From contig DATGZA010000017.1 in NCBI GenBank assembly GCA_035297365.1, forward strand, positions 1 through 16,245: DNA of 16,245 nt, given 5' to 3'. This document shows positions 6,014 to 15,033 of this stretch, piece by piece. This DNA comes from Nitrososphaeraceae archaeon. GTDB taxonomy: Archaea > Thermoproteota > Nitrososphaeria > Nitrososphaerales > Nitrososphaeraceae. Numbering within the stretch: position 1 is the first letter of the stretch; each line of letters starts with the position of its first letter. A model generated the notes under the pieces. It was not told where the DNA came from, ran no database searches, and saw nothing but the letters and a program-made list of their open reading frames with translations. The position numbers and the translations under genes are program-made.

Positions 6014-6059
6014 AAAATGCTTACAGCGGAAGATTATCGCTTGATTTACAGATATTGGT

Positions 6060-6680
6060 TATACTAACTAACAATAATTCATAGAACTAAAGAGATAGTT
6101 TCTGACATCTGGATACAAGTTTTCGTTCTATAATATAACCTGGTTGATCTGTTAGAGAATCAAGTGTAGCTCAATAATAAGATAGTGTATTTTACTTATC
6201 CTGTCTGTAGTATTCCTTCCTCTCCTGCATTTAAGTCTGAATCAACCTAAAAATATTGTAGTTCTATAATACGATTATTTGTATCGAGGAATCGTCTTGC
6301 AATCTTGGAACAATGAGCTTTCGTCGAATCTAACTAATCTATAAAAATAACAAAATCACCAAATCTTTTCCCTATATGTATTAGATAGTCTACCGAGGTG
6401 ATATTGTCAAATTTATCGTATTGTCGAAATAACGGTTTCAGATCTGTCAATATAAAACCAAAAACAACTGCTCTTTTGTAAGAACCTGCTAAGATTATAA
6501 TAGGTTTTGACTTGTAGAAATCCATTGCTTTCTTTTAATTACATAATCATATTCAAATATTTATTCATCTTGTGCAAGGATGTACCAGTCTGTTTCTATT
6601 CTTGCAATATTTTATGTATTCTTTTTTTGAAGCTTTTCTTTTTTTACTGAAGCAGTATTATACCAAATATTCTATATTTT
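6060..6680 (-). pseudogene. Degraded IS630-family transposase (IS remnant)
   Basis: Minus-strand pieces join across stops and frameshifts: NTAS..FKKR (A7G run at 6621-6628), WYILAQDE*IFEYDYVIKRKQWI, PIIILAGSYKRAVVFG..LFRQYDKFD..DYL..IGKRFG..IFID*LDSTKAHCSKIARRFL..IELQYF*VDSDLNAGEE, YYRTK, DVRNYLF. This follows the IS630 DDE_3 order DE...D-x-A-x-H...S(P)DLNxxE. The 63-aa track ORF 6334..6525 is one fragment. Boundaries are approximate. Confidence 0.8.
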
Positions 6681-7749
6681 TTAACTAAATTTACTTATCA
6701 AATCCAATAAACAGTAATAGCTATCTGTCATGATATTTATTTCGTCTAACGTCAAACTATTATGACTTATTCTCGATCTGAATTAATTAGATTATAAAAG
6801 AAGGAAAAAAATCTCAATGTAAATGAAACGATAACATTTGTAATTAAGCTATAACAGGATAATGTTATTCCTGCTTACCTTGTTGCTGATGAACCATCCA
6901 AAAGTATGTCGTGAGCAATTATACGGGTTTGATGGATTCTCTAAAGAAGTATCAGAGGTATTAAAACCCAATAAAAAACTGGTAAACATTAAATATTTTT
7001 GGATATGTCTTGTTAATTATACATCATGTCTTGACATAACTTTAGCATTATTCAATTCCATGAGTGTTATTGAGTTATACTACATATTCGTTTTTATCAT
7101 AATCAATTGAATCATTTTTTTAATTAGGGCGAAGGTTATATGATCAATATGATTATCTGTCCAGATGTACATTCGGACCCTAGATTTTTTACTATTGGTA
7201 ATTAATAAACTATGTGTGCCTACGTTATAAATACACGTTCAGTTATCGATAGACAAAAACATATATTCCATATTATTTATTTGGCACGATTACAGAGTAG
7301 AAATTGTTAACCTACGAAAATAATCCTAGACTCGCTCAATAGATGTCTTTTGAGCTCACTTGAATATACCGGTTATTACTTTACACATGTTTGATCTAGG
7401 TGTTTTTACATATAGGTCATTTTCCTTTTTAATGCGCGAATATGTGAAAAATATAAGATTCTTTTCTGATGAGTTCTAGTCATTTTCAATGTTATGGATA
7501 CATCGCACAAATCAGGTAAAGCGTTTTAATAATTATTACATACATTTGTCTCAACTGTTTAAGAATTTTGCGATTTCGTTGTTAGGTCTTATTTTATAAA
7601 AGGAAAAAAATATTCTCAACAGAATATTTCAAGTATTTTTCATAATTATTTTGTACTCCTGATAATAAACTTTAATGCCTTAGAAGCTTACAGTTGAATT
7701 ACGATAAAATTACAATGATTCTTATGTTTGTTGATACGCCTTAAAGACA

Positions 7750-7828
7750 ACCCCGTTTAAAAAACGCTAGGAGGATTACACCAAGTGTGTAAGGCTATCT
7801 GTGAATAGTCGTGAGTCAGAGGCGGGGT
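7750..7828 (+). other. Candidate structured RNA or DNA element (closing stem enclosing two adjacent hairpins)
   Basis: ACCCCGTTT (7750-7758) pairs with AGGCGGGGT (7820-7828) using two G-U pairs. Inside are TTACAC/GTGTAA (7776-7781/7787-7792) and GGCTAT/ATAGTC (7793-7798/7805-7810). Locally GC-rich in very AT-rich DNA. Confidence 0.3.
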
Positions 7829-7960
7829 ACAATCATAAAGTGTTCATATTGCCTAACTAATTACTTTAACTGTTTTCATAAATTAATTTTATTTTATTTA
7901 TTTTTAGAGATAAATGAAAACTCGAATCTTTAAAACAAAGCTTTCTTCAATCTTTTATTA

Positions 7961-8137
7961 TTATTGTGTTAGATCTATGATGCTCTTTTTGATTATGTAT
8001 TTTGCCTCATTCGAAATATCATATTTTGCTAGAACTGAAGAAGAATCTTTGATAAGAACATTTCTAAACTCAGGTTCACTAGCAGCCTTCAGCAGAATCT
8101 CACTAATTATTTCTGCTTCTTTCTGACGAGAACTCAA
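7961..8137 (-). CDS. Small NHLP-clan (nitrile hydratase leader peptide-like) protein, 58 aa; candidate RiPP leader/precursor or YcaO partner
   Basis: Hand translation from TTG at 8137-8135: MSSRQKEAEIISEILLKAASEPEFRNVLIKDSSSVLAKYDISNEAKYIIKKSIIDLTQ, then three consecutive TAA codons (7963-7955). ILLKAASEPEFRNVLIKD...VLAKYDIS fits the NHLP-leader pattern IxxKAxxDxxFRxxLxxDPxxxLxxY. Divergent from ycaO. Confidence 0.8.
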   Translation of the reverse strand: MSSRQKEAEIISEILLKAASEPEFRNVLIKDSSSVLAKYDISNEAKYIIKKSIIDLTQ

Positions 8138-8154
8138 ACTATTTTTAAATGTGG

Positions 8155-8182
8155 TGCATGTAATATATATTCTTAATGCATG
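8155..8182. promoter_or_regulatory. Putative shared TATA element for the small NHLP-like gene and ycaO
   Basis: TAATATATAT at 8161-8170 sits at the midpoint (8165) between the two TTG starts (8137 and 8193) and is flanked by a TGCATG direct repeat (8155-8160 and 8177-8182). Confidence 0.55.
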
Positions 8183-8192
8183 ATTCGTAAGC

Positions 8193-9530
8193 TTGATAAG
8201 AACTTCTGAAGATAATTTCCCCGTATTGGATCTAAAAAGTCAAAAAAAATGGACCGTAAACGGAACATCGAGAACGGTTTCAGTAGAAAAAACTCTCCAG
8301 CAAGTCTCACATCTATCTAAAGAAATCGGTCTTACTAGGTTAGCAGATATCACATACATGGATAAATTATACATACCAAATTATTCATCTGTTCTACCTG
8401 GAACTGAAGATTATATTTGGGTCTATAGTGGCAAAGGTCCAACTAAAGCCCATGCTAAAGCAAGTGCAATAATGGAAAGTATTGAAAGGTATTCATCGTT
8501 ACCAAGTTCCTTTACAAAAAAAATGTTTCGCGGAACATTCAAAGAATTATCCAGTAGTTATAATATTTTACATCCTGAAGAATTAGTAGAACCGTTATCA
8601 TACGATTTTCAAGATACTATGGTGATGGATTATGTTGAAGGATTTGATATAATTAATAAAGAGAATATACTAGTTCCTTCTTCTTTGGCATTATTTAGAT
8701 ATAGCCCTTCATACCCAGCTGTCAATCCCTTTGCGTTTCACCATACGAACGGATTAGCTTCTGGTAACGTATTTGAAGAAGCTGTTTGTCATTCATTGTG
8801 CGAGGTAATTGAAAGAGATGCCATTAGTCTAGCAGAACTAAGATGCAGCGCCATTCCATTTCATTTATTATATAATCTCTCTAATAATTTAAGAAATAAT
8901 GGATTTGATGTTAGGATAATTTCAAAAAATGATTTCATTGATGACTATGGGATCTTCCCAGATGTTGATATTTCTGATGTACATTTTCAACCAATAATGA
9001 ATCTTGTCCAAAGGTTCAAAAAACATGGTATTCGTCTAATCACTAAAAATGTAACATCAGATCTGGAAATTCCAACCTTTAACGTAGCCTGTGTGGAATG
9101 GGTATCTGACAACTATGGATATTTGGCTGAGGGACATGGTACTCATCCTGACAAAAGAATAGCTCTATTGCGAGCTATTACAGAGGTATCTCAAACCAGG
9201 GCAGCAAATATACAAGGAGCAAGGGATGATTTAAGAAAAATAAAATACGGTCAAAATAATTCAGATGATAAATCTTCATGGCAGTTTATGTCGTCTAAAG
9301 ACGTTGTTAGGTTTTCTAAAATCATCACATATCAAAATGATGATATTCTTGATGATATAAATTTAATAACATCTAAATTAAAGAGAGTTGGCCTTAACAA
9401 GGCCATAATAATAGATCTTACTAATAACAAGTTAAAAATTCCTGTGGTTAGGGCAATTGTGCCTGGTTTGGAGACATTTAAATTTACAAAATCGATGATG
9501 GGATGGAGAGCAAGGAGAAATTTTAGATGA
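8193..9530 (+). CDS. ycaO: YcaO-family protein, TfuA-associated thioamide-forming type
   Basis: TRLADITYMDKLYIP, SGKG, SAIMESIER, TNGLASGN, EVIERDA, RAITEVSQTR, IQGARDD and PVVRAIVPGLE cover the YcaO ATP-binding motifs. There is no Pro-rich PxPxP C-terminus of the azoline-forming YcaOs. Confidence 0.93.
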   Translation: MIRTSEDNFPVLDLKSQKKWTVNGTSRTVSVEKTLQQVSHLSKEIGLTRLADITYMDKLYIPNYSSVLPGTEDYIWVYSGKGPTKAHAKASAIMESIERYSSLPSSFTKKMFRGTFKELSSSYNILHPEELVEPLSYDFQDTMVMDYVEGFDIINKENILVPSSLALFRYSPSYPAVNPFAFHHTNGLASGNVFEEAVCHSLCEVIERDAISLAELRCSAIPFHLLYNLSNNLRNNGFDVRIISKNDFIDDYGIFPDVDISDVHFQPIMNLVQRFKKHGIRLITKNVTSDLEIPTFNVACVEWVSDNYGYLAEGHGTHPDKRIALLRAITEVSQTRAANIQGARDDLRKIKYGQNNSDDKSSWQFMSSKDVVRFSKIITYQNDDILDDINLITSKLKRVGLNKAIIIDLTNNKLKIPVVRAIVPGLETFKFTKSMMGWRARRNFR

Positions 9531-10183
9531 GTATTCCTATAGTTTTTTTGGGTCCCAGTCTTTCTATAGAAAAAGCAAGAAAGATAATAAATGCAGAATT
9601 CCTACCACCTGCCAAAAAAGGTGATTTTATTAAATTAAGTTTAATATCAGAAAAAAAGATAATTATTTTAATAGATGGTGTATTCTTACAAGATTATCCT
9701 CCTACTCCCATAGAAGTATTTCAGGTAGTAAATAAAAATAATTTTCAAGTATACGGCGCATCCAGTCTTGGGGCTTTACGAGCAGTTGAATTAGAAAAAT
9801 TTGGAATGAAGGGATATGGACAGGTTTTTGAACTATTCAAGAAGAATATAATAAATTCAGATGACGAGGTAGCAGTGACATTTGATAACTCTTATAACCT
9901 TCTTTCAGAGGCCATGATAGATATAAGATATAATCTATTTCTTGCTTTTAAAAAAGGAATAATTGATAAGGAAACAAAGCAGTTAATTACTAGAACTGCA
10001 AAGAAAATTTATTTTCCGTTTAGGAGTTACGAAAATATAGTTAAGAAATCTATTGAACTCTATTCTGATACAAGGGATACTATAGAAGACTTTCACAATT
10101 TCGTTTCTACTCAAAGACAAAGCCTCAAAGAATTAGATGCAATGGGGATTTTAAAGAAAATAGCCGAGAATCCACAATATTAA
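9527..10183 (+). CDS. tfuA: TfuA-like protein
   Basis: Motifs IVFLGPSL, PPAKKGD, LIDGVF, VYGASSLGALRAVEL, GMKGYG, DDEVAV, SEAMIDIR, AKKIYFPFRSY and LKELDA. ATGA overlap with the ycaO stop. Confidence 0.93.
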   Translation: MSIPIVFLGPSLSIEKARKIINAEFLPPAKKGDFIKLSLISEKKIIILIDGVFLQDYPPTPIEVFQVVNKNNFQVYGASSLGALRAVELEKFGMKGYGQVFELFKKNIINSDDEVAVTFDNSYNLLSEAMIDIRYNLFLAFKKGIIDKETKQLITRTAKKIYFPFRSYENIVKKSIELYSDTRDTIEDFHNFVSTQRQSLKELDAMGILKKIAENPQY

Positions 10184-10277: not shown

Positions 10278-10664
10278 ATGAACAGCAAAAATATAGACAG
10301 AATTGTCGAACTAAGAGAGTATTGTAAGAAATTGCTTGAATTATCTTTAAATGTTCGTTATGTGTGTATCACTAACGAATTTGGCAGAACACTTGCTGGC
10401 AAGATGAAATCAGGACTGGTTCCACTATTGAGACCTGAAGAGGCAAGGAATGAATTTTTTCTTCACTCAATGATATTCAATATAAGAAAAAATTATGAGG
10501 ATTCTATTGGACCTACAGAACTTATTCTATTACAGAGCTCCAAGGTAAATATTGTTAGTTTTATGAGGAATGGATTAATCTATTATCTTACAATAGAGAG
10601 AGACATATCTAGCGACGAATTACATGGTATTATTAGAAAAATTCAGGAGAAACTTAAGTTTTAG
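10278..10664 (+). CDS. Thaumarchaeal DUF6659-like (roadblock/profilin-like) small protein
   Basis: CxxLLxL..VRYVCITNEFGRTLAG..K.GL.PLL..EE....F......RKNYEDSIG pattern of this expanded family; TTTATAAA at 10236-10243 upstream. Family assigned by recognition. Confidence 0.7.
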   Translation: MNSKNIDRIVELREYCKKLLELSLNVRYVCITNEFGRTLAGKMKSGLVPLLRPEEARNEFFLHSMIFNIRKNYEDSIGPTELILLQSSKVNIVSFMRNGLIYYLTIERDISSDELHGIIRKIQEKLKF

Positions 10665-10668
10665 CTAG

Positions 10669-11269
10669 TTGAGACGGGATCATAATTATTTTTATTTTAT
10701 TTTCACAAGAAATAATACTATCTCCTGGAGAATGATGTTTTGGTGAAAAACAATCATCCTGACCAACAAACCATCTCAAAATAGATCAACAACTATTCTA
10801 AATAATATTTTCTATTTGGTTGGATTAATTAGGTGGCCAGATAAAAATAACAAAAGACGTGGCAGACCATATATCCATTCTCCAACTGTTATCTTAATTA
10901 AGATGCTTTAAATTAAGTATATGGTTTCGATTAGATTCAAAGCACAGATATGGGATTTTAGTTAGTGCAGAGTATAAAGATATGGAAATTTACCTAATGT
11001 TAGGATCAAACTAGTTCAATTTTGTCAATCTAACATTTTACAGACTATATATTAGATGAGAGGTAATCAAACGAGGCGTAGACAGAACATATACAATCTC
11101 TTTTTAGGATAGACCGTTACCTGTAAGAGGATATGATAGTACTTGTGCATCAGTACTATTGTCAGTTTTGCTATACCAGATACTTGTATATTATAACTGT
11201 AAAACTAAAAAATATAATTCCGGAGCAATCAAACACATGTTAGGGAAATAACTATTGACTACATCTTAA
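10669..11269 (+). mobile_element. Degraded, internally deleted DDE transposase/IS remnant (DDE_Tnp_1-like, family uncertain)
   Basis: Broken plus-strand frames from about 10732 to 11251: IRWPDKNNKRRGRPYIHSPTVIL/RCFKLSIWFRLDS, then directly MGF*LV..YGNLPNVRIKLVQF, EHIQSLFRID and PLPVRGYDSTCASVLLSVLLYQILVYYNCKTKKYNSGAIKHMLGK*. These resemble the N- and C-terminal parts of a Nitrososphaerales transposase I recognise. Possible degenerate terminal inverted repeats at 10669-10684 and 11253-11269. Confidence 0.7.
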
Positions 11270-11397
11270 TATTATTGTTGGCAAAGATAATACTTATTTA
11301 TTGAATATTCAATTATTGTCCACTCTCAAATAGTCATACGTCTTATCTTTGTTAGTATCTTGTGATGAAGGAACCAAAAATAATAGATTTAGTTTTC

Positions 11398-13992: not shown

Positions 13993-14086
13993 TGGACCGG
14001 GTGGGATTTGAACCCACGACCACCTACGTTTCCTCTACCTTTAAAGCATGCAAGGCAGATATTCTACCAGGCTAAACTACCGGCCC
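13993..14086 (-). tRNA. tRNA-Ala(TGC) with a 20-nt intron in the anticodon loop
   Basis: Minus strand: GGGCCGG/CCGGTCC acceptor stem with G3-U70 and A73 (Ala identity elements), D arm, anticodon TGC at 14052-14050, T loop TTCAAAT. Removing 20 nt (14030-14049, equivalently 14029-14048) gives stem TCTGC/GTAGG and loop CTTGCAC. CCA is not encoded. Confidence 0.93.
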
Positions 14087-14181: not shown

Positions 14182-15033
14182 ATGAATAATATCAAATATT
14201 TTGATCCGGAAGTTCTTTGCGAAACAGAATGGGTTGCGAACAATTTGGATAATCCGGAAATAAAGATTTTGGAAGTTGATTATGATGTTGAAAATGCCTA
14301 TAAAAGTGGTCACATTCAAGGTGCACACATGGTTTGGTGGAAAAAAGATATTAATGATCAAACTAGGAGAGATATTATTAATAAAAAGCAATTTGAATCA
14401 TTAATGTCTAGAATAGGAGTTTCTAAGAGTGATACTCTTATCCTATATGGTGATTTTAATAATTGGTTCGCCGCATTCGCTTTTTGGGTATTTCAATATT
14501 ATGGACACAAGAAAATAAAATTGATGAATGGTGGTAGAAAGAAATGGGAATTAGAAAATAGAAATTATACTACTGAAGAACCTTCTGTACAGCCTTCAAA
14601 TTATGTTTCCGATCCTCCGGATGAAGGAATACGCTCATACCTATTTGATGTTAGAAGATCGCTTGAAAAAGTCGAAACAGTGCTTGTTGATGTACGTTCT
14701 CCAAAAGAATTTAATGGCGAAATATCTGCTCCACCAGAGTATCCAATGGAGCATGCTCAAAGAAGCGGTCACATTCCCGGAGCTAAAAACATTCCATGGC
14801 TTCAAGCGGTAAATGATGATGGTACATTCAAGACACCAGATGAACTGAATAAACTTTACCAAGATAAGGGTGTAACTCCTGATAAAGAGGTGATCTGCTA
14901 TTGCAGGATTGGTGAACGCTCGTCACATAGTTGGTTTGTATTGAAATATTTACTTGGATATCCTTCAGTAAGTAACTATGATGGTTCATGGACAGAATGG
15001 GGAAACATGATAGGAAACCCAATAGAAAAATAA
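14182..15033 (+). CDS. Tandem-domain rhodanese / thiosulfate sulfurtransferase (CysA/SseA type)
   Basis: Motifs YKSGHIQGA, LYGDFNNWFAA, LMNGGRKKW, LVDVRSPKEF, GHIPGA, active-site loop YCRIGERS and NYDGSWTEWGN. Confidence 0.95.
   Translation: MNNIKYFDPEVLCETEWVANNLDNPEIKILEVDYDVENAYKSGHIQGAHMVWWKKDINDQTRRDIINKKQFESLMSRIGVSKSDTLILYGDFNNWFAAFAFWVFQYYGHKKIKLMNGGRKKWELENRNYTTEEPSVQPSNYVSDPPDEGIRSYLFDVRRSLEKVETVLVDVRSPKEFNGEISAPPEYPMEHAQRSGHIPGAKNIPWLQAVNDDGTFKTPDELNKLYQDKGVTPDKEVICYCRIGERSSHSWFVLKYLLGYPSVSNYDGSWTEWGNMIGNPIEK

Follow-up and report, generated by a model that had tools for sequence, protein, structure and literature searches.

A core-less relative of NHLP leaders as a candidate partner of the YcaO-TfuA pair in ammonia-oxidizing archaea

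Introduction

In methanogens and anaerobic methanotrophic (ANME) archaea, a YcaO-TfuA pair installs a backbone thioamide on a glycine of McrA, the alpha subunit of methyl-coenzyme M reductase (MCR), and structures of the methanogen YcaO, MJ1094, are available (PDB entries 6pe3 and 6peu). The subject of this work is a related pair in a 16,245-nucleotide stretch of DNA from a Nitrososphaeraceae archaeon (hereafter the window, meaning the whole stretch that was analyzed), in which ycaO (8226-9530, + strand) and tfuA (9527-10183, + strand) stand head-to-head with a small gene (7961-8137, - strand) encoding a protein of 58 amino acids (aa). The pair shares with the McrA system its best-scoring curated families, its coupled gene order, and its ATP/Mg motifs. 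It differs in that here there is no McrA, the host is an aerobic ammonia oxidizer, both proteins score below the family cut-offs, the YcaO is longer by a segment of about 34 residues, and a small protein resembling nitrile hydratase leader peptides (NHLPs) is encoded as a putative partner. To our knowledge, no small NHLP-like partner has been described for the methanogen McrA system.

The presence of YcaO and TfuA in this lineage is not new in itself. Nayak et al. 2017 (PMC5589413) placed YcaO homologues of ammonia-oxidizing archaea (AOA) in the McrA YcaO clade even though AOA lack MCR, and Malit et al. 2021 (PMC8120280) reported eight TfuA clusters in Thaumarchaeota, with archaeal thioamidation known, according to that text, only for MCR. 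Rice et al. 2026 (PMC13063428) described uL16 as the second thioamidated protein after McrA, found this substrate by proteome-wide complex prediction, and expected more such proteins. The E. coli YcaO-uL16 system offers one likeness to what we propose here, in that a YcaO acts on a folded cellular protein recognized through its tertiary structure. It differs in having, as described there, no TfuA and in using a YcaO of another family (NF040716, which the YcaO of the window matches at 35 bits).

Three kinds of small protein are relevant for comparison with the product of the small gene. Precursors of the NHLP/proteusin type (TIGR03793) consist of a rigid three-helix bundle with two strands, a proline-rich disordered half that carries the motif LxxxxL, then a Gly-Gly site and finally the core (PMC10858898). 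The small protein is homologous to them (e.g., the solution structure in PDB entry 8tb1) over residues 8-39, and a three-helix N-terminal bundle is common to both; such precursors continue past the bundle to the core, whereas the small protein stops after helix 3. In one NHLP system tested the bundle was dispensable for enzyme binding (PMC10858898), in contrast to our case, where it is the predicted binding element. Thioamitide clusters of the thioviridamide type likewise have a YcaO-TfuA pair beside a small gene (PMC8120280), but there the small gene encodes a leader-core precursor, tailoring enzymes and often transporters accompany it, and the clusters are patchy in distribution, whereas here the genes occur throughout three families, the sequence of the small protein is strongly conserved, and the window lacks tailoring and export genes. 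The best curated match of the small-protein family is that of Os1348 from Pseudomonas sp. Os17 (NF038399), a small all-helical protein of about 8.9 kDa in cells, encoded near putative modification genes and, as reported, of unresolved function. Os1348 differs in being an 85-aa protein with six helices that forms a dimer and in having a GNAT, a peptidase, and a SagB-type dehydrogenase as neighbors rather than YcaO-TfuA (PMC7726476).

Gene content and conservation of the locus

Contig C17 of a 97.1% complete, 2.52-Mb genome makes up the window. As claimed in a preliminary description made from the sequence, the listing of open reading frames (ORFs) shows a small gene that lies head-to-head with a translationally coupled ycaO-tfuA pair. 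The small gene starts with TTG. The ATG of tfuA (218 aa) overlaps the ycaO stop codon by 4 bases, and tfuA is found directly 3' of ycaO on the same strand in every examined locus holding ycaO. The 55-bp gap given earlier for the divergent genes holds only if ycaO is read from 8193 (445 aa), i.e., counting from 8137 to 8193. Read from that position, the frame contains a stop within its first 2-10 codons in 4 of 20 relatives, and all four restart at a TTG homologous to the one at 8226. As such, ycaO likely begins at this conserved TTG (434 aa), which makes the spacer about 88 bp long.

The host encodes amoA, with an archaeal AmoA match of 392 bits in a profile search, while a search for MCR alpha (PF02249) returned no match in this genome and positive results in both methanogen control genomes. 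The host is thus an ammonia oxidizer without detectable MCR, as had been assumed, and since MCR alpha is missing from a genome of this completeness, McrA is not the substrate here. Family scans of the window genes also agreed with the earlier statement that no protease, transporter, or ThiS gene is among them, and no cyclodehydratase partner, dehydrogenase, tailoring, or export gene was found among them either.

The small ORF is clearly a real gene, far beyond what chance would produce. Its pooled ratio of nonsynonymous to synonymous substitution rates (dN/dS) is 0.085 in its own frame as opposed to 0.24-2.3 in the five other frames, and the variable columns at codon positions one, two, and three number 24, 16, and 51 of 58, respectively. 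With tblastn, the gene was found in 21 of 22 related loci, and the remaining locus starts inside ycaO and has no upstream DNA, so that every informative locus (21/21) contains it. The encoded proteins are 64-98% identical to the window copy, and 30 of 58 columns are invariant across 22 sequences. This conservation is close to that of a ribosomal protein: identity lies within 7 points of that of L15e in 18 of the 19 loci holding both genes (the gap is 4.5 points in locus L010 and 3.5 points in L015), and it exceeds the identity of YcaO in 18 of 21 loci and that of PheT in all of them. All 23 homologues are 53-62 aa long. The close relatives examined have TTG or GTG at the position of the start codon, and ATG is found there in most loci from genera and families further away. 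In the host genome the gene is single-copy by tblastn, which retrieved neither a second copy nor another NHLP-like gene (the next best match had an E-value of 0.08).

We next compared the occurrence of YcaO, the small protein, and AmoA across a sample of 301 genomes of the class. In family f1, YcaO and the small protein are both present in 38/38 genomes and AmoA in 36/38; in f3, YcaO is present in 9/9, the small protein in 8/9, and AmoA in 9/9; and in f5 the counts are 4/4, 3/4, and 4/4. In the Nitrosopumilaceae-like family f2, the tallies of which take in three genomes flagged as unpublished (G132, G230, and G282), AmoA is found in 175/181 genomes and YcaO in 0/181, and the small protein gave only marginal matches in 4/181. 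These four matches are regarded as spurious because their E-values are about 0.005 and open frames of 206-382 aa enclose them. Eleven other families, with 68 genomes in all, have none of the three proteins (0/68 for each protein). Overall, the small protein accompanies YcaO in 50 of 52 YcaO-positive genomes and is credibly present in none of 249 YcaO-negative ones, and in both YcaO-positive genomes without it (G253 and G265) ycaO is cut at contig ends. The module is thus present in every sampled ammonia-oxidizer family except f2.

The association expected between the small ORF and ycaO-tfuA therefore stands as one of gene content, but it is not always one of adjacency. The two genes are immediately head-to-head, with gaps below 600 bp, in 28 of the 50 genomes with both, and head-to-head with one transporter gene between them in a further five (genus g23). 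They are unlinked in 17/50 (14 from genus g5, one from g3, and two from g29), all of which have kept both genes, and in three single-contig genomes the unlinked genes are 0.93-1.0 Mb apart. Where the genes do adjoin in f3 and f5, no other window gene (pheST, the 128-aa gene, or the L15e gene) is nearby, which argues that the adjacency of the small gene and ycaO is not mere synteny. The neighbors of unlinked small genes have no common theme: they include a Na+/H+ exchanger, an OGG glycosylase, a TldD/PmbA pair (g29), and a BNR-repeat protein (f3). In f3, the small gene heads a gene string, followed by an uncharacterized protein of about 210 aa and the BNR-repeat protein, with or without ycaO nearby.

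As a separate observation, in genus g29 of family f3 (L034, 3009-5752; L043, 2767-5570) the unlinked small gene is divergent from a pair of genes encoding proteins of 451-483 aa, one of which was identified in family scans as a PmbA/TldD metallopeptidase. TldD/E proteases process a YcaO-made peptide in E. coli. We considered TldD/PmbA as a possible leader protease and set it aside, the adjacency being found in one genus only.

Family and predicted structure of the small protein

Searched alone, the small protein of the window retrieved only models of the NHLP clan and of nitrile hydratase alpha, over residues 8-44 and at sub-threshold E-values of 0.02-0.07. The four NHLP-clan models among them (E 0.02-0.06) are all matched far below their cut-offs, e.g., TIGR03793 with 13.3 bits against a cut-off of 50.9 and NF038399 with 15.1 bits against 40. 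The relationship becomes clear at the level of the family. NF038399 is matched by 22 of 23 family members, drawn from three taxonomic families, at E-values up to 0.1 (best 1.5e-7), and the leader_NHLP model TIGR03793 by 21 of 23 at E-values up to 0.1 (best 8.6e-5). Among Pfam models, Frankia_peptide is matched by 18 of the 23 members, NHase_alpha by 10, and LigA by 5 (best E 0.0018). A profile of the family retrieved nitrile hydratase alpha chains from the PDB at an E-value of 6.4e-8 and the NHLP precursors 9cjx and 8tb1 at 0.02-0.035. The NHLP-like pattern noticed earlier is weak, then, in the window sequence taken alone and clear in the family, where these matches make the small protein a homologue of the helical bundle at the N-terminus of NHLP leaders and of nitrile hydratase alpha. 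Judging from the profile scores, its relationship to the Os1348 family NF038399 is at clan level only.

AlphaFold2 predicted a compact helical bundle for the small protein (pLDDT 88.9), with helices at residues 3-20, 22-30, 32-36, and 43-57. The protein stops 1-4 residues past helix 3; in the window copy, this helix spans residues 43-57 and the chain ends at residue 58. The window copy contains no glycine, no Gly-Gly site, no core, and no disordered leader half. Since only the bundle is present, with no second leader half, Gly-Gly site, or core, it does not have the architecture of an NHLP precursor. The small protein is thus a core-less NHLP relative and not a canonical precursor of a ribosomally made, post-translationally modified peptide (RiPP), and the NHLP-leader-like pattern of the preliminary description does not stand for a leader plus core; any role as a RiPP precursor is putative. 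Within the bundle, the exposed helix 2 is the most variable part, whereas the faces of helix 3 that lie outside the interface predicted below are also invariant within f1, suggesting that the small protein has a function of its own.

A Foldseek search with the predicted model gave no match with an E-value below 0.5, the fold being too small for significance. The top match was the C-terminal domain of DesB, and 8tb1 ranked 11th with a TM-score of 0.52 and 30% identity; neither is significant. A profile search of 1.84 billion representative proteins retrieved 40 proteins at E-values up to 0.001, which indicates a narrow family. The named proteins among the 695 retrieved in a second search were all hypothetical proteins from Nitrososphaeraceae, Nitrososphaera, Nitrosopolaris, or 'Thermoproteota'. 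An Atlas search returned the family's own cluster and then bacterial Os1348-type clusters at 0.80, which we treat as leads only. No fusion of the small domain to YcaO, TfuA, or a candidate substrate was found in what was a weak search, the only hits being two mis-called or longer NHLP-like proteins. One fusion candidate of 1530 aa (P0137) was dropped as a helical-repeat protein matched by composition.

The searches also brought up a distant group of 72-aa NHLP-like proteins (P0149, P0151, and P0158). Metagenome contexts sought for this group gave only two high-GC bacterial loci encoding LigA/LigB dioxygenases (L046 and L047), which told nothing of the group itself and showed the motif to be shared with LigA.

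The YcaO insertion and the predicted complex

The YcaO of the window matches PF02624 at an E-value of 1.4e-70, and the best-scoring NCBIfam models for YcaO and TfuA are TIGR03266 (McrA-glycine thioamidation) and NF033432, respectively. Its ATP/Mg motifs align residue for residue with those of MJ1094 (PDB 6pe3) and are invariant in all 21 YcaOs aligned, and the AlphaFold2 model has a pLDDT of 87. The alignment to MJ1094 is interrupted at one place. With phmmer, residues 16-206 and 255-429 of the window YcaO align to MJ1094, and between these two blocks 48 residues here (codons 207-254 numbered from 8226; positions 8844-8987, + strand) face 14 there. In the comparison with MusD, 42 residues (203-244) face 8. 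These alignments define an extra segment of about 34 residues relative to the solved methanogen YcaO, which appears as a lineage-specific insertion. It is present in 21/21 YcaOs aligned, from three families, and consists of a helix (210-224) leading into a loop in which an FVDDP..FP(D/E)VD motif is conserved. A word-based search with the insertion only retrieved two proteins, such a search being too insensitive to define the range of its occurrence.

We then predicted a complex of YcaO (21-row alignment), TfuA (21 rows), and, as the scored partner, the small protein (23 rows) in three runs. The score was 0.78 in each, and controls scored 0.00, 0.01, and 0.02, the last with YcaO replaced. In calibration, 58 of 80 solved complexes reached the score mark, as did 2 of 110 mismatched pairs; these counts apply only roughly here because we used our own alignments and a three-chain job. 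At least 96% of the contacts were common to the three runs, and the partner had a pLDDT of at least 87. The predicted contacts involve helices 1 and 3 of the small protein and its conserved AA.EPEFR turn on one side and YcaO residues 211-242 and 433 on the other; no TfuA residue is among the contacts listed, and the C-terminus of the small protein touches that of YcaO in the model. The predicted docking surface thus coincides with the insertion that was found separately by phmmer. Within f1, 21 of 24 interface positions of the small protein are at least 90% conserved compared to 19 of 34 other positions, a difference that is not independent of the alignment used for the prediction. No solved YcaO-NHLP complex is among the PDB matches of YcaO or of the small-protein family, and we know of no such structure that the prediction could be recalling. 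The model thus supports binding of the small protein to YcaO.

TfuA and sulfur supply

TfuA matches PF07812 at an E-value of 1.9e-35. TfuA proteins are described as drawing sulfide equivalents from a thiocarboxylated ThiS-type carrier in organisms that do not live in sulfide (PMC13063428). By analogy, TfuA here may deliver sulfide from a thiocarboxylated carrier, and two ThiS-family genes are present elsewhere in the host genome.

The window also encodes a tandem-rhodanese sulfurtransferase (14182-15033, + strand; PF00581, E 1.5e-36), 4 kb downstream of tfuA. A homologue with 27% identity lies directly after tfuA, in convergent orientation, in L037 (genus g6). The host genome has five rhodanese paralogues, and the association with tfuA is seen in no other locus. 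The rhodanese is a possible sulfur-relay candidate, the link being a weak one.

Intergenic region and expression

In an alignment of 12 loci, the divergent intergenic region (8138-8225) contains an invariant TATATA at 8164-8169, 27 nt from the start codon of the small gene, and an invariant block, TTGATAAGA, at 8193-8201, 24 nt from the TATATA. From this pattern, the two genes could share an archaeal promoter that works in both directions, ycaO having a short 5' leader.

Four RNA libraries from four studies, a type of library in which DNA can be present, were compared with positions 7600-8800. In library X8, a 183-nt contig covers 7940-8122 with 2 mismatches. All four libraries have contigs on ycaO, covering 8228-8389 in X8 and reaching up to 8785 in X11, with 4-11 mismatches each. 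No contig in the four libraries covers the spacer at 8133-8214, from which we draw no conclusion. The contigs on the small gene and on ycaO are compatible with transcription and are no proof of it.

Other features of the window

Directly 3' of tfuA lies a gene encoding a 128-aa protein (10278-10664, + strand) with no Pfam or NCBIfam match. It is found in close relatives only, at 44-97% identity, and is absent from the loci of other genera; with no family match and this narrow occurrence, we did not count it as a part of the system. Further downstream, Rfam detects a 94-nt tRNA (13993-14086, - strand; 52 bits) that ARAGORN did not call and that probably contains an archaeal intron.

Two stretches of the window are poor in ORFs, 6014-7750 and 10665-11397. 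The latter recurs at 76-88% identity elsewhere in the genome (contigs C12, C58, and C56), which marks it as a dispersed repeat. From pheT to the small gene, the spacer measures 1.9 kb in the window compared to 0.3-1.4 kb in relatives. Within it is a conserved structured element of about 85 nt (7751-7838, + strand), G+C-rich against a background of 30% G+C and present in 23 of 24 related-locus matches at 75-88% identity. Its terminal stem, CCCCGUU/GGCGGGG, precedes an invariant ACA, and compensatory changes are seen at three pairs of an inner hairpin. No Rfam model matches it even at an E-value of 5, and one RNA-library contig touches 7796-7832 within it. We presume from its motifs that it resembles an H/ACA-type guide RNA.

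Discussion

Taken together, the sequence comparisons and the predicted complex are best read as pointing to a lineage-specific three-part protein-thioamidation module in ammonia-oxidizing archaea other than family f2. In such a module, YcaO would, by homology, activate a backbone amide with ATP, and a ThiS-like thiocarboxylate, its gene lying elsewhere in the genome, would be the source of the sulfide equivalent that TfuA hands over. The small three-helix protein would dock through its helices 1 and 3 on the insertion of YcaO directly after the catalytic helix and would itself be thioamidated as a folded protein, probably near the C-terminal end that touches the YcaO C-terminus in the model. 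Of this, the data show the gene content, the conservation, the co-distribution, the homology, and an in-silico interface backed by controls; binding, chemistry, sulfur source, and modified site are read from them.

Several observations weigh against this reading. YcaO scores 274.2 bits against TIGR03266, below the equivalog cut-off of 365, and TfuA scores 206.3 bits against NF033432, below its cut-off of 235.2; because both fall short of the cut-offs for the McrA system, thioamidation itself is a step that we infer. AlphaFold2 predicts a rigid bundle that ends at residue 57-58 with no flexible core, and the C-terminal tail of the small protein is not conserved between families, where a shared modification site would predict conservation. 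The interface listed for the complex holds no residue of the YcaO ATP/Mg motifs, so that the modeled pose would be a docking pose and not a catalytic one, and the score on which it rests is calibrated only roughly. Lastly, the number of independent events behind the co-distribution is small, possibly just one loss in f2, and the relatives compared are not independent of one another.

Nevertheless, it seems likely to us that YcaO has, in one role or another, a dedicated partner in the small protein, and whether it is modified or helps to modify something else appears to be the right frame for the question. We lean, tentatively and at somewhat under even confidence, toward the small protein being the client of YcaO. 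This is favored because its NHLP relatives are precursors, because it appears to have its own promoter and is separable from ycaO, and because helix 3 is conserved on all faces within f1; it is also favored because the two C-termini touch in the model and because YcaOs are able to modify folded proteins. We find it rather unlikely, by comparison, that the small protein goes unmodified and serves as an accessory subunit of YcaO, a 'leader in trans' that activates the enzyme or recruits it to another cellular protein carrying the thioamide. Much of the structural evidence would suit such an adaptor: only the rigid three-helix part of an NHLP is present, without disordered leader half, Gly-Gly site, or core; its predicted docking on a lineage-specific insertion is rigid and away from the ATP/Mg motifs; interface positions are the better conserved ones in f1 (with the dependence on the alignment noted above); and its fold relatives are enzyme subunits (nitrile hydratase alpha, LigA, and, by a Foldseek match that is not significant, the DesB C-terminal domain). 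A single-copy gene conserved about like that of a ribosomal protein, with a C-terminal tail that varies between families, would fit as well. However, an adaptor requires a further component, the true substrate, and an obligate subunit would be expected in the operon, whereas the small gene has its own putative divergent promoter and is unlinked in 17 of 50 genomes. A third protein would be expected to bind the exposed helix 2, where sequence variation is greatest, and the weak search for fusions to YcaO, TfuA, or a candidate substrate gave none. In full-text literature searches, no case came up in which a free-standing natural NHLP domain serves a YcaO, and none is known to us.

Two further explanations depart from this frame. 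The small protein could have nothing to do with thioamidation and be an independent protein for housekeeping or regulation, the gene of which has a promoter region in common with ycaO in many genera, the predicted interface being a false positive. The unlinked genomes, the gene string that the small gene heads in f3 regardless of ycaO, and the two mismatched pairs out of 110 that also reached the score mark would all be accommodated, and the phyletic match could stem from a single loss of many genes in f2. We nevertheless hold this to be distinctly improbable, given that the divergent adjacency persists across three families in which YcaO identity falls to about 50% and all other neighbors have changed, that no credible copy is found in 249 YcaO-negative genomes, that the predicted contact surface is the very insertion found by a separate comparison, and that the control with YcaO replaced scored 0.02. 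The other explanation, which we think very improbable, is that the YcaO-TfuA pair carries out other chemistry (amidine or azoline formation) or thioamidates an exported RiPP of the classical type whose gene lies elsewhere. YcaOs carry out diverse chemistry, the YcaO matches include azoline-forming and S12-accessory families, and both scores are below the McrA equivalog cut-offs (274 against 365 bits and 206 against 235). Against this, an adjacent, coupled TfuA marks thioamide-forming YcaOs in the systems described (PMC8120280, PMC13063428), the thioamidation models are the best-scoring curated ones, and the window has no cyclodehydratase partner, dehydrogenase, protease, or transporter. Moreover, no other NHLP-like gene was found in the genome by tblastn, and in three families the genes are present throughout and conserved vertically, which sets them apart from typical antibiotic clusters.

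A bolder formulation, that a core-less stand-alone NHLP domain was recruited as the dedicated partner of a McrA-type YcaO-TfuA pair by means of a new insertion in the enzyme, is one that we put forward only with caution as a possibility. As far as we searched, the core-less NHLP partner, the matching insertion, and their distribution are new. A small partner, a YcaO insertion, or a substrate in these archaea was not found in the full texts searched, and predicted archaeal precursors may be listed in the supplementary tables of PMC8120280. The YcaO-TfuA pair of the lineage was already known from the reports on AOA YcaO (PMC5589413) and Thaumarchaeota TfuA (PMC8120280), and so the novelty that the preliminary description left unverified extends to the partner and the insertion and not to the pair.

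What the analysis provides is a concrete three-gene hypothesis, with a conserved partner, a predicted binding surface on the enzyme, and a set of lineages with the module, that makes the question of the AOA YcaO substrate directly testable. If true, this would bring the kinds of backbone thioamidation on proteins to three, with the first example from an aerobic archaeon, and it would give a first function to the structured NHLP bundle, the role of which was unclear in the one system examined in the cited work (PMC10858898). In one version, the outcome would be a thioamide-bearing small protein with a housekeeping role, for which that of a copper ligand in copper-dependent organisms is conceivable as pure speculation; in the other, it would be a naturally occurring 'leader in trans' directing the enzyme to a cellular protein without a leader of its own. 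Since these archaea are major soil nitrifiers, a universal modification system of either kind would bear on the physiology of AOA.

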